Source of the DNA: a virus
Strand: one strand, 5' to 3'
IMG/VR virus record: IMGVR_UViG_3300019888_000002
Location: 1 to 64,000 of that record
Length of the DNA stretch: 64,000 nucleotides
Positions 19,975 through 62,812 of this stretch are shown here, one piece after another. A program made the position numbers and the translations under genes. The notes under the pieces were generated by a model that did not search any database, was not told the DNA's origin, and saw nothing but the letters and a program-made list of their open reading frames with translations. Position 1 is the first letter of the stretch, and each line of letters opens with the position of its first letter.

Positions 19975-20601
19975 TCAGCTCACCACAATCGCGGGAAGGA
20001 TCGAGACAGCACCGGAGGTGTCTCTGGTGACAAGGGGCTGCGTGTACGTCTTCGTCACAGGACTTCCGTACGTCACGGTGTAACTGTCGACCGCACCGGG
20101 GAACGCCGTGGACAACGCTGTTGCTGTGTATATTCCAGGCGACCCGTCCGGCCATACCACCGCGAACGACGTAATAGCCCCGTTCGCATCCCTCGTGACC
20201 GCGCCAGAGATGATCTGACCAAGGTCGCGGGCGAGTTGTGGATACCTTGGCGCTGTATCCGCCTTGCCAAGCGACGTTTGCACCCCCGCCGAAAGGTCCG
20301 TCGCGGGGATACCGCCACCGGGCCTCAGGTACTTCGTCCCGCTGCTACTCCACCCCGGATCGGAGTCGTACATGATGACCAAGGGGTCCGAGGCACTGAA
20401 ATCCGGCCCCACAGCCCCCCTCGGGAGAGTGAGGACGTTGCCGGAAAGCGAAGCATTGCGCGCGTCCGCAGCCGAATAGATCAACTCGGTGCCGCGCCGG
20501 ATCGAGCGAATCTGTTCCTTGACAGGGTTCGTCAAACCGGTCAGTGTGACGGTTCCTGCTACCGGGTTGAAGGCATAGGTAGAAACAAGCTGCGAAGTCA
20601 C
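19975..20601 (-). CDS. Hypothetical virion/fibre-associated protein, 208 aa
   Basis: AGGAGAG RBS; beta-rich; heads the 3-gene fibre/esterase block. Confidence 0.7.
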   Translation of the reverse strand: MTSQLVSTYAFNPVAGTVTLTGLTNPVKEQIRSIRRGTELIYSAADARNASLSGNVLTLPRGAVGPDFSASDPLVIMYDSDPGWSSSGTKYLRPGGGIPATDLSAGVQTSLGKADTAPRYPQLARDLGQIISGAVTRDANGAITSFAVVWPDGSPGIYTATALSTAFPGAVDSYTVTYGSPVTKTYTQPLVTRDTSGAVSILPAIVVS

Positions 20602-22732: not shown

Positions 22733-22775
22733 GTCTGCCTCCCTCTCTCATCTCTTCCCCTGTGGAAGTGACTCT

Positions 22776-23270
22776 CTAGATATGTTTCCAAGACCGATGA
22801 GTTACGACTCCATAGACAGTCGAATCTGCAATCCCGAATTGATTCATCAGATCTCGGATGGAGCTACCACTGGCGTACCCAGCTCTGATCTCCAACACCT
22901 GCTTCTCGGTGAGCTTGGAGGTAGGGACACCCTCACCTTTCCGATACCGATCACGCTCCATAGCCTCATCGGTGTTTTGCCTACGGGTCCCAAGCTTCAA
23001 ATGATTCGGATGAACGCACCCCTTGTTATCGCAGGTATGAATCACGAACATGCCCCGAGGGATTGGACCGTGGTGGACGATGTAAGAAAATTGATGCGTC
23101 GGCCGGTACCTGCCAGCGAACCAGACCGTCCCGTACCAGTTGTTGACCGAATCTTCTTTCCAGAACCAGCACCCCTCCTCTGGCGGTGATCCGGGAAGAA
23201 ACCAGGAAAACACCTCCTGAGGAGTTAAGCCCGAGGGAGGAGACTTCCTCCTCGATCTCGATTTCGTCAT
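22776..23270 (-). CDS. HNH homing endonuclease with C-terminal HTH (start revised to ATG 23270)
   Basis: HQFSY...HTCDNKGCVHPNHL...N motif; C-terminal SIRDLMNQFGIADSTVYGVV HTH. Confidence 0.9.
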   Translation of the reverse strand: MTKSRSRRKSPPSGLTPQEVFSWFLPGSPPEEGCWFWKEDSVNNWYGTVWFAGRYRPTHQFSYIVHHGPIPRGMFVIHTCDNKGCVHPNHLKLGTRRQNTDEAMERDRYRKGEGVPTSKLTEKQVLEIRAGYASGSSIRDLMNQFGIADSTVYGVVTHRSWKHI

Positions 23271-23355
23271 AAGAAAATCGTACCACAAGTGTACCAAGTT
23301 CCACGCACTGTGCTCGGGGGTATCCCGAGGGAGAAGAAACGAAAGGAGGTGCATC

Positions 23356-23451
23356 GTGGACGACCACGTGTTGTTGATCATCATCCTGATAGTCGTTGCC
23401 ATTCATCTGGCAGTCGATCTGTTCGGGACCTACGGCCACCGTCGGGTGTAA
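23356..23451 (+). CDS. 31-aa single-helix hydrophobic peptide (type I toxin-like), antisense to the operon
   Basis: GAAAGGAGG RBS then GTG; MDDHVLLIIILIVVAIHLAVDLFGTYGHRRV; followed by a terminator. Confidence 0.65.
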   Translation: MDDHVLLIIILIVVAIHLAVDLFGTYGHRRV

Positions 23452-23465
23452 AAGGTCTCGACACG

Positions 23466-23507
23466 GAGAACGGCCTCCGGGCGTGATGCTCGAAGGCCGT
23501 TCTCTTT
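23466..23507 (+). terminator. Intrinsic terminator after the 31-aa peptide
   Basis: GAGAACGGCCT / AGGCCGTTCTC 11-bp stem followed by TTT. Confidence 0.65.
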
Positions 23508-23626
23508 CGGTGACCCAGCAGGAGGGGAACCCCCACAGGAACACCGTCCTGCTGGCTTCCTCCAGTCTAAGCCCTAACCACAACATGTTGTGGTGATGTG
23601 GGGTACTTCTCCCACACATGTAGGGG

Positions 23627-24247
23627 TCAGAGTTTACTGACTAGCACCTTGGTCACCTGCTCTGCGAGACCCTGGGAAATTCCAGCGGTCAGTTTCGTCT
23701 TGAACTCGGCCACGACCTCGGCCGCCGCCACCCTGAGATCCTTCTCGAGTGCCGCCTTGACGGCCTGGTCGACCTTGATATCGACCAGACTCTTGGTATC
23801 ACGGTCGTAGCTCGACGCCCGATTCCCACTCGTGGAGTATTTCTCGTTGAGCACTTCCTTGACACGATCGATGACCATTTCCCGAATGGTGGCCTCCTTG
23901 CCGGTGCGTTCCCCGTAACTGTTGGTCAGGGGGAAAGGATCGGTGAAGACCTTCTCGATCAAAGGCTCGATCCGGGCCTTGGCCGACTCGATGGCAGCCT
24001 GCTGCACTGCCTTGTCCAGAGTTTTCCCGATCCGTTGCTCGAGCCGGTGGACGAGCTGCCGGACGATCTCCTCCTTGACCCCGTAGAAGGGCTCGGGAAC
24101 CTCGACATCGGGGTCTCCGGTGTAGGCCAGATTGGGCCACATGGTCTCGAGAAGCTGTGCCGGATCGAACTGGAAGGTGATGGGAGCGAGCACCTGACGG
24201 GACTCGAGAGGGACAGACTGCTGTTCCTCGGAAAATGATTCGGTCAT
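23627..24247 (-). CDS. Hypothetical helical protein, 206 aa
   Basis: AAGGAG RBS; amphipathic helical sequence. Confidence 0.8.
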   Translation of the reverse strand: MTESFSEEQQSVPLESRQVLAPITFQFDPAQLLETMWPNLAYTGDPDVEVPEPFYGVKEEIVRQLVHRLEQRIGKTLDKAVQQAAIESAKARIEPLIEKVFTDPFPLTNSYGERTGKEATIREMVIDRVKEVLNEKYSTSGNRASSYDRDTKSLVDIKVDQAVKAALEKDLRVAAAEVVAEFKTKLTAGISQGLAEQVTKVLVSKL

Positions 24248-24304
24248 GGGGGTTCTCCTTGGGGAAAGTCTAATCGAACGAGGTCTCGAACAGTTCTCGT
24301 AACG

Positions 24305-24853
24305 TCAATTGACCGGAGTCAACTGTAAATCCTGCACTTTGATGGCGACCTCGGTGCCGTCGAGGGTGACGTAGCCACTTCCCTGGACGATGTCGTTGCT
24401 CATGACGCACTCGAACGCACCCGTCAGGCAGGACAACCGTTCCCAGTAGCCCATACCGCTCGTTGCGGTCGCCGTGTACTCACCGGGCGCGATGTCTTTG
24501 CCCAACTTGAGTGTCCCGTTCTTGGGGAGCTTCTTGGGAGCGGGAGGGGCCGGGGGTGTCGGCACCGTGGTGGGAACCGGGGCTGCCGAAGGAACAATCA
24601 CTGGCGGAGGCGGAACTGCTGGCAGAGATGCCTCGGTCGAAGTGTTACCGCTACCTGCGTCGTAACCCTTCTTGGCCGAGTCGGGGGAAGCGAGCACCGA
24701 GATGATGATCAGCAGTAACACGACTCCGCCGACAATCCAGGGCCACTTGTGCTTCTTCTTCGGGGTCCGAGGTGGTCCATAGTATTGCGGCCCGACCGGG
24801 GGCTGTTGCCCAGGGAACTGTGGATAACCGGGCTGGGGGTTCTGGTGGGGCAT
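24305..24853 (-). CDS. Membrane-anchored protein: Pro/Gln-rich N-terminus, one TM helix, Pro linker, extracellular domain
   Basis: WPWIVGGVVLLLIIISVLA TM; GTLKLGKDIAPGEY...GYWERL domain typical of actinobacterial surface proteins. Confidence 0.75.
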   Translation of the reverse strand: MPHQNPQPGYPQFPGQQPPVGPQYYGPPRTPKKKHKWPWIVGGVVLLLIIISVLASPDSAKKGYDAGSGNTSTEASLPAVPPPPVIVPSAAPVPTTVPTPPAPPAPKKLPKNGTLKLGKDIAPGEYTATATSGMGYWERLSCLTGAFECVMSNDIVQGSGYVTLDGTEVAIKVQDLQLTPVN

Positions 24854-25007
24854 GAGAGGTCCTTCTCGGTTGTGGGGGTTCAAGCTCGGTGCCTGTACTC
24901 AGACTGTACCATAATCATCAGATATAAGATAACTCGGCCTCGATTGACGAGATAACTCCCGTGGTACGGTGCAGTTATCTATTCTCACACAGAACAGGAA
25001 CCCCCAC

Positions 25008-27008
25008 ATGAGCTTCATCCAGCCATTGATCATGGCACCCAACCCCCGGGGAGCGGCGCTCCTGATCAATCGCACCTTCAAGGAGGGCGAGATCGATCAG
25101 TACAAGCGAGAGCTGGTCAAGAACGCCATCGAGGCCAATGCCACCGAGATCAGAACCACAGCTCTGCGCCTCGAAGACCTCGGGGACGAAGGAGGTGTCA
25201 AGGCAGCCTTCGTGGACAACGGCGACGGCATGAGTTCGAACAAAATCACCGACTACATCGGCGAACTGTTCAACGGGGCCTCCTCCATGGGTGCCGACGG
25301 CAACTTCCAGATGGGTGCCCGCGTGTCCACCCTGCCCTTCAACCAAGCAGGCATCCTGGTGGCCTCCTGGACCGAGGCCGAACCCGAAGGCACCATTCTC
25401 TGGATCAGATGGGACAAGACCGAGCAGTGTTACGGCGTCGAGCCCTGGGAAGACGAAGACGGAGTAGCACAGCCGACCGGAATCCCTGACCCCTCGCTCA
25501 AGCACGAGATCATCGAGAAGACCGGGCACGGGACCGTGTTCGTTCTGCTGGGCAGTAAGGACGAAGACCACACCGTCGGCGAGATCGGTCAGGGTCTCGA
25601 CGGCCACTTCGTCTACCCGGACGTACGCAACACCCGTGACGACCTGCTCTTCTACAACTCGAAGTTCTGGGTCCTTCCGGAGGAAGTGGTCCTCAAGACC
25701 ATGTGGGCTCCCCGGGACCTCATATCCTGGAAGAACAAGATCGCCCCGGGGCAATGGTTCGATGACATCGTGGACCACAACTCCTGGCGCTGGCGCAAGT
25801 ACGAAGGTGTCGAAGACCGAATCACCAAGTTCGCCGAGACCAAGGGCTCGGTTTCGGTGACCTCTCACCGAGGTCACAAGGCCACGGTTCACTGGGCACT
25901 GTTCCCCGAAGGTAAGTTCATCGGCCAGGACGGAAGCGGGGCCTCTCGAGACACCACCGACTACTACATCCCACTGGGACTGTTCGGTGAGATGTTCAAA
26001 GGCGAGATCTACAACATTCGGCAGTTCGGCAAGGCTCGCACGGCCATGGAGCACTACGGCGTGGCTCGCAGAGAGCTACGGGACAGGCTCGTCCTGATCA
26101 TCGAGCCGAACAAGAAAAGCGCATCCTTCATCGGTGCCGAGCCCTCGGGTGCGAGAGGCCACCTCATGATCGCCAACGGTCCACTGCCACACGAAGAGTG
26201 GGGTGAGAACTTTGCCCTGCATATGCCGCAGGCGATCAGGGAACGCCTGGACGACCTGAACTCGGCGAACACCGACGACCAGAAGGAGAAGATCAGGCGC
26301 ATCCACGATCGGCTGAAGAACTACTTCACGCGCACGATCAGAAGCACCCTGCCGACGGCCGAGGAGGCCCCGACCGGAGACGAGACCGACGAAGACGGTA
26401 ACACCGGACAGAATCCCGACACCGGCTCGACACCGGGCAAGTCGAGAAGAATCATCGACGGCCCCGAGTTCCCGCGCGGACCTCGGACAGGAATCAAGGT
26501 GACCAGGAGACCACGCAAGCTCTCCAGGATCGGTGGAGGGGCGAAGAAACGGGCTCCAGGGCTCAGCTCCAGTCATTCCAATCCGACCCAGCAGATCAAC
26601 GAGGTCTGGGACACGACCGGAGAGGAGTTCACCGACGGCCTGGAGGCACTCGTCGTGAAATGGGTCCCGGCCGGGCGTCGGCTCATCGTGAACGGGGCTC
26701 ATCCCTATATCACCGAGCTGCTGCGGATCGAGAAGGTGGAGCGTAAGGAGAGCAAGGCCGAGGAGGTCGAACGATACCTCAGGGAGGCAATCTTCACTCA
26801 CCTGATCAGCCACATCCTGTCGGTGGAGCTGTATGCCAGGTCCACGATGGCCGGGTCTACCGGGGTCGGGACCGACTTCACCAAGGCTGCTCTGTCCGAT
26901 CAGTCTCTCTCGGCCACGGTGCTGAATCTGCCGACACTCGAGTCTCTGGTCCATGCCAAGTTCAAGGGCCGAACCGGTCTCGGGAAGACCAAGACTCCAG
27001 CGGCCTAG
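25008..27008 (+). CDS. GHKL (HSP90/MutL/MORC-like) ATPase, ~666 aa
   Basis: RELVKNAIEA (N box), VDNGDGM (G1), GNFQMGAR (G2), HGTVFVL; C-terminal LIVNGAHP; RBS before ATG 25008. Confidence 0.85.
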   Translation: MSFIQPLIMAPNPRGAALLINRTFKEGEIDQYKRELVKNAIEANATEIRTTALRLEDLGDEGGVKAAFVDNGDGMSSNKITDYIGELFNGASSMGADGNFQMGARVSTLPFNQAGILVASWTEAEPEGTILWIRWDKTEQCYGVEPWEDEDGVAQPTGIPDPSLKHEIIEKTGHGTVFVLLGSKDEDHTVGEIGQGLDGHFVYPDVRNTRDDLLFYNSKFWVLPEEVVLKTMWAPRDLISWKNKIAPGQWFDDIVDHNSWRWRKYEGVEDRITKFAETKGSVSVTSHRGHKATVHWALFPEGKFIGQDGSGASRDTTDYYIPLGLFGEMFKGEIYNIRQFGKARTAMEHYGVARRELRDRLVLIIEPNKKSASFIGAEPSGARGHLMIANGPLPHEEWGENFALHMPQAIRERLDDLNSANTDDQKEKIRRIHDRLKNYFTRTIRSTLPTAEEAPTGDETDEDGNTGQNPDTGSTPGKSRRIIDGPEFPRGPRTGIKVTRRPRKLSRIGGGAKKRAPGLSSSHSNPTQQINEVWDTTGEEFTDGLEALVVKWVPAGRRLIVNGAHPYITELLRIEKVERKESKAEEVERYLREAIFTHLISHILSVELYARSTMAGSTGVGTDFTKAALSDQSLSATVLNLPTLESLVHAKFKGRTGLGKTKTPAA

Positions 27009-27020
27009 CTCGGCAACGGA

Positions 27021-27054
27021 AGAAGCGCCTCAGGTCCGGACCCGAAGCGCTTCT
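27021..27054. terminator. Hairpin between the ATPase and the convergent RNA candidate
   Basis: AGAAGCGC / GCGCTTCT inverted repeat. Confidence 0.5.
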
Positions 27055-27107
27055 CCACTGTGCATCCTCTTCGTCAGGCTATGACCTCTGACTATCGCCG
27101 AACTCTA

Positions 27108-27395
27108 GGTCTTCTTCCCCTGGGGGTCAGTGCCGGATGGATGAATCCGCCCCCAGGATGCACCTGCTCGTGAGGTTCTCGGAACCTCAGGCAGACTTCC
27201 CAGCGTGTGAGGAGAGGCCCGGTTGCGTCCGGGTCGGGGCCGTCGGCGACCGAGCCTCTCCAGGCCCTGACTCATGTGCTGCTCCAGCGGAGATGGCGGG
27301 CCAATCCCTCCGTGGCGGCTCTTGGCTTGTCCGAGATGGGCCAAGTCGGTGATCTTTCGGGCCGAAACCTCGAGCGCTCGGAATCACGCAAGACC
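27108..27395 (-). ncRNA. Candidate ~290-nt structured non-coding RNA, family unknown
   Basis: Starts just downstream of a TACAGT -10 motif; 5' GGTCTT pairs with 3' AAGACC; six consecutive helical domains with 5-8-bp stems; no credible ORF. Confidence 0.6.
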
Positions 27396-27537
27396 ATTAC
27401 TGTACTACACCTGAGCCAGCCACCGGAAGAAACCGACGGTAGCGGCAACCAGCAGCGGCACATTGACAACCAATGGGTCTATAGGGGTACAGTACTAGGA
27501 CATCTATCGGACACAATCGAGAAAGAGAACCCCCACA

Positions 27538-27978
27538 ATGAAAACAGGTATGCGTGCAGTGAGTCTGAGTCTGATCACGTTGGTCATGGGCGCGGCCGGG
27601 ACGGGGATAGCCTCGGCGGCCCCGGTGGAGAGAGCTGTCGTCTCCCCTGCCGAGCAGAACACGGCGTGGAACACCTTCGGCGAGGAGGTCGCTCTCGGTA
27701 CGGCTGTCGGCACCCCTCTGGGTGCTGCTGCCGGGATCGTCCCCGGAGCGGTCATCGGAGCCGGGGTCGGGTGTGTTGCTGCCGGTCTGCTCGCCGGAGT
27801 CGTCATCCCGGTTGCCGGTTTGGTGTTCGCACCGAGTGCGTGCCTGACCGCTGGACTGGTCGGTGCGGGTACTGGTGCCGCTCTGGGGGCTGCGCTCGGC
27901 GGCGCTCTCGGTGGTGCTGCCGGTGCCGGTACTGCCGCTGCGCTGGGGGCCAATCAGCTTCAGGACAAGCTGAAATAG
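27538..27978 (+). CDS. Secreted glycine-zipper protein
   Basis: Signal peptide ending ASA-APV; long GxxxG array; TTGACA..TACAGT promoter upstream. Confidence 0.8.
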   Translation: MKTGMRAVSLSLITLVMGAAGTGIASAAPVERAVVSPAEQNTAWNTFGEEVALGTAVGTPLGAAAGIVPGAVIGAGVGCVAAGLLAGVVIPVAGLVFAPSACLTAGLVGAGTGAALGAALGGALGGAAGAGTAAALGANQLQDKLK

Positions 27979-28012
27979 TTCGCGTCGGTCGGGCAATCGA
28001 AGGAGGTTCGCG

Positions 28013-28207
28013 ATGACATTTTCGCAGAAGACTTCGGCGCAGAAATTCCACGGCGTGCTGGCGCTGTTCCTGATCGTCGTCGTGATATTCGACCTGATCA
28101 GCGGCGTGAACACCGTAATGGAGTGGGTCGGCGCTATCGGGCTGACGGTCTGTGTCGTCTCGGGTCTCTTGTCGTTCTTCCGGGCACCGCGCCCGGATCG
28201 AAGGTAG
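28013..28207 (+). CDS. Small two-TM membrane protein, 64 aa
   Basis: AAGGAGG RBS; two hydrophobic helices. Confidence 0.75.
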   Translation: MTFSQKTSAQKFHGVLALFLIVVVIFDLISGVNTVMEWVGAIGLTVCVVSGLLSFFRAPRPDRR

Positions 28208-28214
28208 GAGAGAT

Positions 28215-28544
28215 ATGAAGATCAGTGTTCTAGGCAGTAGGCGTTCTCTGACGACCGGGATGGTTCTTGCTGCTGCTGCGGTGGGATGTCTGACATTGCA
28301 GGCTTCCCCGGCTCACGCAGTACCGGGTGACGCAGGCAAGTGCGTGACGGGAGCTGTCGTATTCGGTGCCGGTATCGCGGGGACCGCCGCCACCGATGGC
28401 GTAGCAGGGGCATTCGGAGGTCTGGGAGCGATGCTGGGAGGGGAGGAGACCATGCACACAAGCTGCCCTCCGGCTCCGGGTGTGGTTGCCGAGATTCCTA
28501 CGAATCCACTGTTGGTCAAGCCCCATAACGACGGGACAGCCTGA
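28215..28544 (+). CDS. Secreted Gly-zipper protein with two Cys (bacteriocin-like), start revised to ATG 28215
   Basis: AGGAGAG RBS; signal peptide ending AHA; KCVTGAVVFGAGIAG...TSC. Confidence 0.7.
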   Translation: MKISVLGSRRSLTTGMVLAAAAVGCLTLQASPAHAVPGDAGKCVTGAVVFGAGIAGTAATDGVAGAFGGLGAMLGGEETMHTSCPPAPGVVAEIPTNPLLVKPHNDGTA

Positions 28545-28620
28545 GAGAGCCGATGTCGGGTCGGGGCTGACACCTCGGCCCGACATCGAACCAACCGAGA
28601 GCAACGTGAAGGTGGTGGGG

Positions 28621-28851
28621 ATGGAGTTCTGCATGAAGGGTCTGCACAGCTGGACCCCCGAGAATATTACTTTCCACCGTCTCAAGGACGGCGAACTCAA
28701 GCAGACCTGTTTGCCCTGCCGTAGGGCATCGCGTCAGCGCTGGGAGCGGGCGAACCGCTGGAAACGACAAGAGCGAGACCGGCAGCGCGGGGCCTACAAA
28801 GCGAGAACCCCTCCCCGGATCGAGAAGGGGAGGGGTTTCGTCAGCTCTTGA
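28621..28851 (+). CDS. Stand-alone Zn-binding domain resembling the C-terminal module of actinophage HNH proteins
   Basis: CMKGLH..TPEN...QTCLPCRR motif; basic tail; start uncertain. Confidence 0.5.
   Translation: MEFCMKGLHSWTPENITFHRLKDGELKQTCLPCRRASRQRWERANRWKRQERDRQRGAYKARTPPRIEKGRGFVSS
28806..28837. terminator. Bidirectional terminator-like hairpin after the major capsid gene
   Basis: AACCCCTCCCC / GGGGAGGGGTT 11-bp stem. Confidence 0.7.
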
Positions 28852-28865
28852 ACCAGAATGTTAGC

Positions 28866-29864
28866 TCAAGATTTGCGCAATGCAATCAGGCCGCGCGGAT
28901 TTAGGATAGCCATACCTACCAATTCGTCCATCACCCAGCCCTTGTGGAACTGCTCCACCTGGTTGTTCTCTTCGACGTCCAGGCTGTACATCACCGGGAA
29001 CACGCCGAGGAACTCCGGTGCGGGCGCGAGGTACACCGTCCCCTTCGGCACGATGATCGACTTGCCGATCTGGAACTCACCGAACTGCACGATGCGCTCA
29101 CCCGCGACCACACTGTCCTTGAACGCCCAACCGGTGGTGTTGATATCCCACCGGTAGAAGTCGCGGAACTCCGACGGATGGCAGAGGAGTCGGCTCGAGT
29201 CCAACTGCCGGGTGTCGGTGTAGCTCACGGCCGTGTAGAGATCATCGGGCATGAGGTGCGTGCCGGTGATGGTGATCTCGTTGGGCAGGGTGCCGCCGAT
29301 GTTGGCCGTGGAGTCCACCGTGCGGTACTGGACGATGGCCGCCTCGATCAGGGTGACGAGACGTCCGTCCTCCTGCCGCATGATGGCCTGCTTGGTCATG
29401 TCCTGCGTGTACTCCACGATGTTGCTGCGGAGGTAGTACAGGTCTTCCTTCTTGATCTTGGGGAAGCTGGCGATGCGGAAGAGCTGCACCTCCACACGCT
29501 TGCCCTCGAACGGCGTGATCTTGATCTCGCCCTCGTTGCCATGAAGGATGTACGCCTGACCCAGGTCGTCCAGCACGTCGTACTGGATCGGCACGCCGGG
29601 GGTCAAAGCATCTTCCAGCAGCACGTTGCGCAGGATGCCCTGGTAACGAAGCTGAAGCTGGATCGGACCGATCATCGACTGACCGAGCCGGAGGATGCCG
29701 TTCTGCTGATCCGAGACGATCGTGCGTAGCTTCGCCTTCTTCTCGGCTGCGGTCAATGTACGACCACCGAGCTTCTGACGTGCTGCGACAATAGACTTCA
29801 CGTACTCGTCCGATGCCTTGGCGAACCTGCCGAGGCCCGACGCTTCTGCGACTGCGAGTGTCAT
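28866..29864 (-). CDS. Major capsid protein (start revised to ATG 29864, 332 aa)
   Basis: AAAGGAGAG RBS; follows the decoration and protease genes; sequence recalls cluster C capsid proteins (LRYQGILRNVLLED...). Confidence 0.9.
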   Translation of the reverse strand: MTLAVAEASGLGRFAKASDEYVKSIVAARQKLGGRTLTAAEKKAKLRTIVSDQQNGILRLGQSMIGPIQLQLRYQGILRNVLLEDALTPGVPIQYDVLDDLGQAYILHGNEGEIKITPFEGKRVEVQLFRIASFPKIKKEDLYYLRSNIVEYTQDMTKQAIMRQEDGRLVTLIEAAIVQYRTVDSTANIGGTLPNEITITGTHLMPDDLYTAVSYTDTRQLDSSRLLCHPSEFRDFYRWDINTTGWAFKDSVVAGERIVQFGEFQIGKSIIVPKGTVYLAPAPEFLGVFPVMYSLDVEENNQVEQFHKGWVMDELVGMAILNPRGLIALRKS

Positions 29865-29886
29865 TGGCTTCTCTCCTTTCTTTCGA

Positions 29887-30381
29887 TCAGTGGACCAGGA
29901 AGCGGACGACGATCTTGTCCGCACCGACGACGTCGATCAGCTCGAACTGAGCTGTCGCGGCGACGGCCCCGGTGGGGGTGAGTCGGCCCTGAGCATTACC
30001 GGTCAGGTATTTACGGCTGCCGTCGGTCGGCAGCGTCCAATCGCCGGTGGCGTCGAATGCCGGTGCGAGGATCTCGAACGTGGCATCGGGGCCACCGACC
30101 CAGACGGTGAAGTTGCTGTTCCCGGTCGAGCTGATCTCATCGACCCCGAGAACCGGAGCCAGGAAGAGCGCAGCGAGACCGAACGGGACCTGCCCTGTCG
30201 CCGCTGTGAACGGCGTGAAAATCTCTTTGGTCTTCCGGGCCATGACGATGCCGGGAAGGATGTCGAAAGCCTTGTTCCAGGTCGGGTCCAGGAAGCCCGC
30301 GTAGGTCGTGGCCTGATGCTGTGCATACAGGGGACGGATCGTGCGCTTCAAGGCCGGATTGGCCAGTGGTGGACGAAACAT
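29887..30381 (-). CDS. Capsid decoration/cement protein (putative)
   Basis: 164 aa between protease/scaffold and capsid; beta-tulip-like composition. Confidence 0.75.
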   Translation of the reverse strand: MFRPPLANPALKRTIRPLYAQHQATTYAGFLDPTWNKAFDILPGIVMARKTKEIFTPFTAATGQVPFGLAALFLAPVLGVDEISSTGNSNFTVWVGGPDATFEILAPAFDATGDWTLPTDGSRKYLTGNAQGRLTPTGAVAATAQFELIDVVGADKIVVRFLVH

Positions 30382-45264: not shown

Positions 45265-45354
45265 GGTGGGGGTTCCTTTCGAATGATCTTGCCTTGTTCC
45301 TGTACTAACACTGTACCACGGCTGCGCCGAAGCGCAACCGTGGCTGTCAAGAGA

Positions 45355-45528
45355 TCAGGAACGCATCTCCAGCTCGAAGATCGCGTCGGCCCAGTCGTCC
45401 ATCTGCCGCTCCTCGATGGAACGAACCGGCCGGACCAGCTGGCAGACCTTGGTCTGAGCGACCGTGTCGTGGTGGGCGTGGGGACCGGCGTTGAGGGCCA
45501 TGTGGACTCGGTTTCCGCAGCGGATCAT
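45355..45528 (-). CDS. Cassette gene, 57 aa, paralog of 44947..45264 (start ATG 45528)
   Basis: Own promoter/RBS cassette; same RCGN...HHD.VAQ...C motif. Confidence 0.75.
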   Translation of the reverse strand: MIRCGNRVHMALNAGPHAHHDTVAQTKVCQLVRPVRSIEERQMDDWADAIFELEMRS

Positions 45529-45649
45529 GGGGAGTTCCTTTCTCGGGTCTTGCTCTTTGCTTGTACTAATACTGTACCTCAAGATTCCTCGGTCCGCAAC
45601 CCCCGAATCGCGACGATCGAGAAGGTGGGGCCGAAGCCCCACCCCGAGA

Positions 45650-46006
45650 TCAGCAGAGCGTGGAGATCACGCTCGAGTCGAGCAGGCCCAGGCCCTTGGC
45701 GAAGACGCCCTCCCGCTTGGCCATGGCGATGAGATCGCCCTTGAGCTGACCCTTGCGGAACTGGTGAACCGGAAGGTCGACCGTGACCTTCGTGCCGTCC
45801 TTCAGCTCGCCGTAGCAGTAGCTGAGGTCCCAATACGGGAAGCCGGGATCGGTCAGGAGGCGAAGCCGGACGACGCGGGCAAGACGCGGATCGTTCAGGG
45901 AAACCCGCTGGCTGCGGTCGATGTTCTCGCGGAAGTCGTGCCAGTGCTCGGTCATCCCGTTGGTCTCGTAGACACCGTAGGTCTGGAGTGCGTCCTGGTT
46001 GATCAT
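45650..46006 (-). CDS. Cassette gene, hypothetical, 118 aa
   Basis: Own promoter/RBS cassette; followed by GTGGGG/CCCCAC hairpin. Confidence 0.8.
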   Translation of the reverse strand: MINQDALQTYGVYETNGMTEHWHDFRENIDRSQRVSLNDPRLARVVRLRLLTDPGFPYWDLSYCYGELKDGTKVTVDLPVHQFRKGQLKGDLIAMAKREGVFAKGLGLLDSSVISTLC

Positions 46007-46092
46007 GGGAGGTTCCTTTCGTGGGTCCTGCTCTGTGCCTGTACTAGAACCATACCATAACTGTACTAGGCACGCAACACCCCCGGGTCACC

Positions 46093-61579: not shown

Positions 61580-61679
61580 GATGGATCACTGTTCCTTTCG
61601 AGTGGTCGTGCTCTGTACCCAGACTGTACCACAGTCAGAGGTTGTCGTTGGGTGGGGCTCCCGAAGGAACCCCACGAGA

Positions 61680-61985
61680 TCAGAGGCTCTGAGCGCGGAG
61701 CTTGGTCGAGTTCGCCATCTTGTCGGCGAAACGCTCGATGCTCGGCCGGAGCATCTCGGCGTAGTTCAGCCACGCCTGCTCGTCGGAGGCCATCCAGCCC
61801 ATGCCGTAGACATCGGAGACCGGCCGGTAGCAGCTCCGGCAGATGACCCCGTGCTGTCCGCCCTTGCCGGACGCCTTGCAGCAATCGGTGAGGTAGTACA
61901 CGATCCCGTCCTGGGCTACCAGGGTGCCGCCGACCGAGTCGGACGCGAGGACTACCGGCTGGCTGGGGGCGAAGGTGGAGGACAT
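61680..61985 (-). CDS. Cassette gene with CC...CxxC Zn motif, 101 aa
   Basis: Own promoter/RBS cassette; TDCCKAS...ICRSC. Confidence 0.8.
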   Translation of the reverse strand: MSSTFAPSQPVVLASDSVGGTLVAQDGIVYYLTDCCKASGKGGQHGVICRSCYRPVSDVYGMGWMASDEQAWLNYAEMLRPSIERFADKMANSTKLRAQSL

Positions 61986-62079
61986 GAGGTTCCTTTCTCG
62001 GCGAGGCCCGGTGCCTTGCTCGTAATAGAACTGTACCACAGATGTACCTAGGGTTGTCAACCCCCGAACCGAAAGCAAA

Positions 62080-62110
62080 AATCCCCTCTCCCGCGAGGGG
62101 AGAGGGGATT
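62080..62110 (-). terminator. Strong intrinsic terminator
   Basis: AATCCCCTCTCCC / GGGAGAGGGGATT 13-bp stem followed by a T run on the - strand. Confidence 0.85.
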
Positions 62111-62118
62111 CCGGGGAA

Positions 62119-62313
62119 TCAGGCGTTGATCAGGAACTTCACGCCGTTACGGTCCTGGCGGAAGTCGCGACGGTCACGACGGTGGCTGGAAGCCTTGACG
62201 ACCTTGCGAACGCGAGCAACCTTGCGGCTCTGCACGATGTGATCACAATGACCGTCGCACTTGCCGTGGAAGATGTCCAGCTCGTCGGCGGTGGTGTTGT
62301 GAAGGGCTCGCAT
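62119..62313 (-). CDS. Cassette gene, Arg/Lys-rich 64-aa protein with H/C cluster
   Basis: Own promoter/RBS cassette; HGKCDGHCDH then RKVARVRK..RRDRRDFR. Confidence 0.8.
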   Translation of the reverse strand: MRALHNTTADELDIFHGKCDGHCDHIVQSRKVARVRKVVKASSHRRDRRDFRQDRNGVKFLINA

Positions 62314-62364
62314 CGGGGGTTCCTTTCGTTGTTCTTGCTTGTGTACTCATACTGTACCACAGAT

Positions 62365-62580
62365 TTAGGAAGCCGCAACGGTCGATTCCTGGAGGGCTCG
62401 CTGAATCGTCGCGGCGATCATCTCCTCGGTGGCCCCGGCCGACCGGGCCTCGTTGGCCCAGCTGATCTGAGCGGCTCTTCGAGTCCGGATCAGGTCCCGA
62501 TCAGCGTTCTCCAGCGCGGCCTGATAGAGACGCTGGGTGGAGTCGTGAACGCGCCCCAGGGACTGGTCGAGAGACGACAT
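62365..62580 (-). CDS. Cassette gene, helical 71-aa protein
   Basis: Own promoter/RBS cassette before ATG 62580. Confidence 0.7.
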   Translation of the reverse strand: MSSLDQSLGRVHDSTQRLYQAALENADRDLIRTRRAAQISWANEARSAGATEEMIAATIQRALQESTVAAS

Positions 62581-62812
62581 GTGGTTTCCTTCCGAGAGGT
62601 TCTTGCCTGTACCCATACAGTACCACAAATGAACTACATGCACGCCCGAACGGACCGGGGTTTTACATCTCGTACCAGTGCGAATCCAACTGACCTGTTG
62701 CCCGCCCGAACTCCAGAATTCTTTCCAGTTCCTCGTTGCTCATCGTCGTGTCCTCTCGTGTGAAGTAGAGCGTGAAGTGGCCGGGGAGGTTGCCCCCCTC
62801 CCCGACATCCGA

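Follow-up and report, generated by a model that had tools for sequence, protein, structure and literature searches.

A gene-free gap in the genome of an actinobacterial phage may give rise to a discrete, structured non-coding RNA transcribed from the - strand, a reading to which we assign a probability of roughly 0.4. The stretch of DNA analysed here (64,000 nucleotides, hereafter the window) comprises the first 64 kb of a 131,157-bp virus record that carries direct terminal repeats. Its portal protein shares 55.7% identity with that of Rhodococcus phage Finch and about 51% with those of cluster C mycobacteriophages, the major capsid protein (gene at 28866-29924, - strand) is 82% identical to the Finch protein, and the products named through PHROGs include portal, terminase, tape measure and one virion structural protein; on these grounds the phage is placed among the Bxz1/Finch-like myoviruses of Mycobacteriales hosts. 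The gap spans 529 nt (27009-27537) and is bordered on one side by a gene for a GHKL-type ATPase, whose product matches Pfam HATPase_c_3 just under the cut-off, and on the other by a cassette of small Gly-rich membrane proteins that begins at 27538 on the + strand. The GHKL gene and the Gly-rich cassette together form a + strand island within a - strand gene flow. Inside the gap lies the stretch 27108-27395, which an initial annotation had proposed as a novel, highly structured phage RNA and which is unique in this genome, no paralogous copy being found elsewhere in it.

In the model that we favour, a promoter with a TTCCGG -35 element (27428..27423) and a TACAGT -10 element (27404..27399) would start a - strand RNA near 27392, and the transcript would pass through six GC-rich hairpins, from H6 to H1, before stopping at a 17-bp hairpin (T, 27056..27019), giving a molecule of about 375 nt with a stem-loop near each end. 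We infer that this promoter is active, that T forms the 3' end of the RNA, and that the hairpins near its two ends stabilise it; as a side effect, T would keep - strand transcription out of the GHKL gene. The features on which this model is built are the following, ordered along the direction of the proposed transcript.

27463..27537, + strand: partner promoter (TTGACA, 19 nt, TACAGT at 27488-93) and leader of the Gly-rich cassette; 19.9 bits
27423..27428, - strand: -35-like hexamer TTCCGG, 18 nt from the -10 box; direct reading
27391..27416, - strand: promoter-family core, three heptads 11 bp apart (GCTCA / GTACA / GTCTT); position weight matrix
27404..27399, - strand: -10 box TACAGT, with the expected start near 27392
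27349..27387, - strand: H6, hairpin GTGAT/ATCAC with inner pairing; -11.3 kcal/mol on the - strand, -14.3 on the + strand
27321..27345, - strand: H5, hairpin CTTGGC/GCCAAG; -8.4 kcal/mol on the - strand, -13.5 on the + strand
27288..27312, - strand: H4, hairpin CGGAG/CTCCG; -12.4 kcal/mol on the - strand, -10.8 on the + strand
27211..27261, - strand: H3, the longest internal hairpin; -33.3 kcal/mol on the - strand, -36.2 on the + strand
27165..27194, - strand: H2, perfect 8-bp hairpin TGAGGTTC/GAACCTCA with CTGC/GCAG flanks; direct reading and folding
27119..27157, - strand: H1, perfect 8-bp stem CCTGGGGG/CCCCCAGG with inner CGGAT/ATCCG; direct reading and folding
27058..27118, - strand: purine-rich, less structured spacer from H1 to T; direct reading and folding
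27019..27056, - strand: T, terminal hairpin just after the GHKL gene; folding and inverted repeat
25008..27008, + strand: GHKL-type ATPase gene (start 24969 also given), 666 aa in public assemblies, convergent with the proposed RNA

The promoter belongs to a family that recurs throughout this genome, with roughly 45 members whose core is made of GTAC-type heptads with an 11-bp period and a TACAGT -10. A weight matrix of the family yields 49 sites above 12 bits, compared with about 4 in shuffled genomes. TACAGT itself is present in 31 copies, 27 of them on the - strand, and its usual context is a -35 like TTGACA or TTGCGG followed, after 16-19 nt, by tgGTACAGTnnnGGTAC. The copy at 27404 scores 19.3 bits, and 16.7 bits with a matrix trained without it; sites that reach 16.7 bits number 0.07 per random first-order genome versus 41 in the real one. 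Its hexamer TTCCGG is one base off the TTGCGG of other family promoters, it shares CTGGCTCAG with the family member at 115867, and the motif is oriented, having no score on the + strand at this site. It is thus a significant, correctly oriented family member pointing into the gap, with three weak points: the -35 lacks the conserved G, the third heptad, GTCTT, is degenerate, and the base at the expected start is C instead of the A of other family members. The initial annotation, which had put the 5' end a few nt downstream of such a box, was right that a TACAGT box adjoins the stretch, but the box sits on the - strand, and the proposed RNA therefore has to be a - strand RNA.

Most clear copies of the family are followed by a conserved leader, a GGAACCCCC-type RBS and a start codon within 20-60 nt. 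No such leader, RBS or start is found downstream of 27399 on the - strand, and the unit would therefore be non-coding. At many family promoters the conserved transcribed leader consists of aCAgcAcAGAGCAGGACCC, then GAAAGGAACCCCC, then ATG; leader-bearing promoters of this kind are located at 45300-46070 and 61620-62630 of the window and at 64540-84010 of the genome, where they form standardised expression cassettes that lend themselves to cataloguing as a regulon. The 27404 promoter stands back to back with the + strand cassette promoter at a distance of 84 bp, and a second back-to-back pair (24903/24970) drives genes in both directions. Besides, the second-best family match of the whole genome (88627-88652, 28.3 bits) lies on the + strand among genes that run on the - strand, with the RBS and ATG of one such gene about 35 nt away, and on the - strand a TACCAT -10 falls on the other heptad of this match. 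Judging from this arrangement, the GTAC heptad pair may be an orientation-independent operator that is not part of the -10 itself.

The other end of the proposed RNA is marked by T. On the - strand this hairpin forms 17 contiguous pairs, three of them G-U (-29.1 kcal/mol), whereas on the + strand each of these three becomes a C-A mismatch (-20.9 kcal/mol); neither strand carries the U-tract that follows the GC-rich stem-loop of an intrinsic terminator. Since all three non-Watson-Crick positions wobble on the - strand only, the predicted pairing argues that T is used as a - strand RNA, an observation made post hoc. T is also the first strong stop structure downstream of 27392 on the - strand, and is likely to act both as the 3' end of the - strand RNA and as the stop structure behind the GHKL gene. 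The promoter copy and the - strand-only 17 pairs of T lead us to favour a transcript of about 375 nt over the closed molecule of 288 nt that had been drawn initially. The terminal helix of that molecule, GGTCTT at 27108-13 with AAGACC at 27390-95, can be read directly from the DNA; its 5' arm on the - strand (27395..27390) lies 4 nt after the -10 box and upstream of the expected start near 27392, and so the helix would fall partly outside the RNA. When the transcript 27392..27019 was folded as a whole (z -2.16), the terminal helix of 27108-27395 was lost. The closed 288-nt molecule is thus poorly supported, as its likely 5' end cuts the terminal helix, its likely 3' end is the 27019-27056 hairpin, and the helix does not survive in the full-transcript fold.

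All helices listed by the initial annotation were found by direct reading, and for either strand RNAfold recovered the terminal helix together with the first two hairpins. The arms of H1 are CCTGGGGG (27119-26) and CCCCCAGG (27150-57), those of H2 are TGAGGTTC (27171-78) and GAACCTCA (27182-89), and those of H3 are GGAGAGGC (27211-18) and GCCTCTCC (27254-61). The two inner hairpins assigned to 27211-61 compete with a longer, extended stem; on the - strand H3 has a 13-bp stem with one G-U and a C-rich apical loop, CCCCGAC. H6 would be the 5'-proximal stem-loop of the - strand RNA. The strand preference of the internal hairpins is mixed: H1 and H2 are equal on both strands, H4 favours the - strand, and H3, H5 and H6 favour the + strand, with H5 being longer there by three G-U pairs. 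The internal hairpins thus do not settle the choice of strand.

How far this structure exceeds chance was assessed in several ways. Counting perfect stems of at least 8 bp with loops of 3-40 nt gave 127 in the whole genome, or 0.29 per 300 nt, and the four such stems present here within 300 nt are the genome maximum, tied with one locus near 13.4 kb. The minimum free energy of 27108-27395 is -139.5 on the + strand (z -2.27; 4 of 200 dinucleotide shuffles fold as well) and -128.9 on the - strand (z -1.81; 8 of 200). After correction for GC content, the exact 288-nt segment ranks 17th of 1364 windows on the + strand and 147th of 1364 on the - strand, and the shifted - strand window 26977-27264, which takes in H1 to H3 as well as T, is the most stable of all 1364. 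Moreover, the ensemble diversity (mean base-pair distance) is about 24-25 on both strands compared with 65±23 in shuffles, of which 2-3% are as low. The description of the stretch as highly structured is therefore borne out by a hairpin density at the genome maximum and a well-defined ensemble, but only in part by its folding energy, which beats the dinucleotide shuffles narrowly (z about -2) and lies only moderately above chance; the excess of structure is real and modest, in a region that was chosen post hoc. The most stable fold of the whole genome after GC correction was found at 23233-23620 of the window (z -4.5 on the + strand, about -3 on the - strand), which contains a promoter-family site at 23294 on the - strand (24.1 bits); neither a standard leader nor an RBS follows this site. 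By these scores, 23233-23620 looks like a stronger structured-RNA candidate than the stretch 27108-27395.

The better fold on the + strand (z -2.27, rank 17 of 1364) and the greater stability of H3, H5 and H6 there would also suit a 3' extension of the GHKL ATPase mRNA, produced by + strand read-through and equipped with hairpins for stabilisation or processing. T may leak in that direction, as it is imperfect on the + strand and has no U-tract. Even so, T remains a -20.9 kcal/mol hairpin directly after the stop codon, no + strand promoter motif occurs between 27009 and 27460, and the oriented - strand promoter would be left unexplained; taken together, these points make read-through a distinctly unlikely source of the structure.

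Homologues of the stretch were sought widely. A distant-mode blastn search of 50,697 phage records returned no match to it, and exact and degenerate patterns of the stretch identified no homologue among contigs from viruses, metagenomes and genomes. Other copies come solely from Logan contigs (SRR7026568 and SRR7026569) and are 100% identical. A covariance model built on 27108-27268, which scored 202.7 bits on the window as positive control, found no homologue in Finch, RedWattleHog, Stormageddon, Skog, HyRo, five IMG/VR relatives, and eleven loci of GHKL homologues or capsid relatives; its best match falls inside the coding sequence of DnaE, the DNA polymerase gene of Skog. As no homologue was found and the other copies are identical, the stretch offers no covariation.

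Homologues of the GHKL ATPase reach at most 49% identity, and none were found for the downstream 146-aa protein. In two metagenomic phage contigs, the GHKL homologue (47-49% aa identity) is directly followed by a gene for a D12-class (Dam-like) DNA methyltransferase (L008:5971-6897 and L009:6067-6993), and in a third contig a convergent gene follows; none of the three loci has a gap. This suggests that GHKL ATPase and D12 methyltransferase constitute a two-gene module, of which the phage studied here has the ATPase alone.

The gap stretch is non-coding, as judged from flat codon phase, spurious-like ORF scores, and the lack of both Shine-Dalgarno-backed ORFs and protein homologues. GC content by codon phase is flat over 27030-27500, compared with 0.58/0.44/0.80 for the GHKL gene. 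In a codon log-odds model trained on 100 long ORFs, the ORFs of the gap score between -0.03 and -0.34 per codon, within the range of spurious ORFs (-0.19±0.23); for the two genes next door, of 146 and 64 aa, the values are +0.28 and +0.21. A search for Shine-Dalgarno-backed ORFs in the gap turned up none above 16 aa, merely scraps of 15-16 aa, and the earlier statement that the stretch holds no RBS-backed ORF was confirmed by codon phase, ORF scoring and this search alike.

A small protein, or a gene that decayed recently, was nevertheless weighed. It could be encoded by a - strand ORF of 79/56 aa (27105-27344), which has GGAG 6 nt before the ATG at 27275 by direct reading, or by the + frame 27207-27537, which continues the phase of the GHKL gene without a stop and whose score (-0.05 per codon) is the best among all six frames; the D12 methyltransferase gene that follows the GHKL homologue in two relatives also speaks for such a gene. 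Nevertheless, all ORFs of the gap remain in the spurious score range, their translations are Arg/Pro/Gly-rich, and no family-type RBS precedes them. The 110-aa translation of the + frame from 27207 has no homologue in 1.84 billion protein representatives or PHROGs, and the 79-aa and 71-aa gap ORFs gave no match in tblastn against 50,697 phages. We also considered a decayed remnant of the methyltransferase, which was rejected since tblastn detected no similarity to it in the gap or anywhere in the genome. A protein-coding origin is thus very improbable.

The capsid relatives (84-89% aa identity) share about 76% DNA identity with this phage up to the end of the capsid gene at 28873, and have no detectable DNA similarity to the segment of approximately 22.7-28.87 kb that includes the candidate; within 22740-28870 the GHKL gene is the exception, matching two other contigs. 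Behind the capsid gene the cargo differs from each relative to the next, with beta-helix proteins or a GDSL lipase as instances (L026-L032), and on comparison of these loci this slot looks like a hot spot for accessory cassettes. Because the relatives share nothing past the capsid gene end, the candidate is located in a phage-specific accessory island, and because the closest relatives show no similarity there, the island could be a mosaic junction too recent for selection to have shaped it much. Insertion by way of flanking direct repeats about 405 nt apart was examined as well and dismissed, such repeats being not above shuffles. Elsewhere in the window, the stretch 20257-20578 is 81.7% identical in DNA to the stretch right after the capsid gene of one relative (L029, 8193-8514), compared with 75% for the capsid gene itself; in L029 it is the start of a 702-aa gene and here it lies within a 208-aa ORF (19975-20601, - strand), and it looks like an N-terminal module common to different proteins.

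Such a history would agree with the view that the gap is ordinary spacer DNA separating two cassettes that were acquired independently, that its hairpins are terminators or insulators together with leftovers of mosaic recombination, and that no discrete functional RNA is made from it. We regard this as quite possible. The - strand motif would then be a relic, or would serve the nearby + strand promoter as an auxiliary operator, and the fact that it is composed of GTAC heptads, which may be protein-binding sites rather than promoter elements, fits with this. So do the variable cargo behind the capsid gene, the loss of similarity over about 22.7-28.87 kb that ends at the capsid gene, the fold z of only about -2, and the finding that other hairpin-dense windows also overlap gaps of the crude gene map or strand switches. 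However, a relic is not expected to carry the densest cluster of perfect stems in the genome, nor a T in which all three mismatches become G-U on one strand, and the motif at 27404 is oriented and has a -35-like hexamer at the family spacing.

Comparison with known RNA families was carried out with Rfam 15, whose 4227 models include 6S-type RNAs, tmRNA, RNase P, SRP, ribozymes, and large phage-associated RNAs. No match was obtained over the whole window at gathering thresholds, and in a sensitive scan (E<=10) of 26900-27600 the best matches stayed at or below 20 bits against cut-offs of 45-230, consisting of hairpin-type noise; ARAGORN detected no tRNA or tmRNA. The initial annotation had recognised no tRNA, tmRNA, RNase P, SRP or ribozyme signature and had named Infernal against Rfam as a check; its view holds, since no family was matched.

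One of the weak matches deserves mention. The model of the actinobacterial sRNA F6 (RF01791) aligns with H3 on the - strand over its whole 57 positions, with an identical loop core CCCCGACCCG, at 18.5 bits against a cut-off of 46. The assignment of H3 as F6 was rejected, as GC-rich hairpins in general reach a score of this order: on H3 itself, miRNA-precursor models with no relation to F6 do as well, and terminator-like hairpins of RedWattleHog and Stormageddon attain 19.7-21.7 bits with the F6 model. That GC-rich, terminator-like hairpins of related phages do equally well with RNA models would also be in keeping with an ordinary spacer.

The suggestion that the RNA might be a polymerase decoy like 6S or Ms1 was not sustained, and the wider idea of an early-expressed, functional RNA gained no support either. 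RNA polymerase decoys of the 6S/Ms1 type are long, mostly double-stranded rods with a central bubble that resembles an open promoter. The candidate shares with them a size range of about 200-300 nt and GC-richness, but its predicted fold is multi-branched with six short hairpins in both MFE and centroid structures on both strands, rather than a rod with a bubble, and there was no Rfam match even at E<=10.

A second comparison is offered by the type I toxin-antitoxin loci txpA/RatA and bsrG/SR4, which consist of convergent antisense RNAs overlapping at their 3' ends. The candidate likewise would be a small non-coding unit that converges on a protein gene, the two having a two-way terminal hairpin in common. 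Here, however, the partner is a 666-aa GHKL ATPase and not a small hydrophobic toxin, and the overlap would be confined to the 38-nt hairpin.

The closest parallels are found in other actinobacterial phages. In cluster A mycobacteriophages, gene-free gaps (a Pleft-proximal region of about 500 bp, and the gap between genes 63 and 64 of D29) are the most highly transcribed regions, and the gap RNA, the most abundant transcript, is toxic when expressed, with no role known (PMC5712189). In Rhodococcus phage WC1, gene-free gaps, which give the RNAs nc_1 to nc_3, are likewise the most highly transcribed loci (PMC10986025). In both cases the RNAs were demonstrated by RNA-seq and Northern blots (PMC5712189, PMC10986025). 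The candidate is similar in being a gene-free stretch of a few hundred nucleotides in an actinobacterial phage, directly after a phage promoter and with no credible ORF. In contrast, the cluster A and WC1 RNAs are conserved within their clusters, whereas the candidate is a singleton known from sequence alone, and they have no sequence similarity to it in the distant-mode search of 50,697 phage records; the resemblance is one of kind only, not of sequence. By analogy, the most likely role of the candidate would be that of an abundant, stable phage non-coding RNA like those from the gene-free gaps of other actinophages.

Whether such an RNA would have a function of its own in trans is doubtful. 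Actinobacterial sRNAs with C-rich loops pair with G-rich ribosome-binding sites, and action in trans might be pictured as that of a protein sponge, or as pairing of the C-rich apical loop of H3 with G-rich ribosome-binding sites. The most far-reaching version, in which an orphan structured RNA that belongs to no Rfam family, is about 375 nt long and possesses both a promoter and a terminal hairpin of its own acts in trans on the host and moves as a mobile cassette in the post-capsid slot, we consider unlikely.

Thus, we speculate that the gap encodes a plausible orphan phage non-coding RNA, as suggested by its promoter, hairpins and setting. The candidate is a single, unreplicated sequence whose fold statistics are modest (near the 2% level), and its value is that of a lead and not of a result; as such, the unit makes a compact construct for testing. 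If the reading is true, it would add a further example of such RNAs in a Bxz1/Finch-like myovirus, one with its own promoter and a strand-specific terminal hairpin, and would indicate that RNAs of this kind can travel as self-contained cassettes, as protein morons do.
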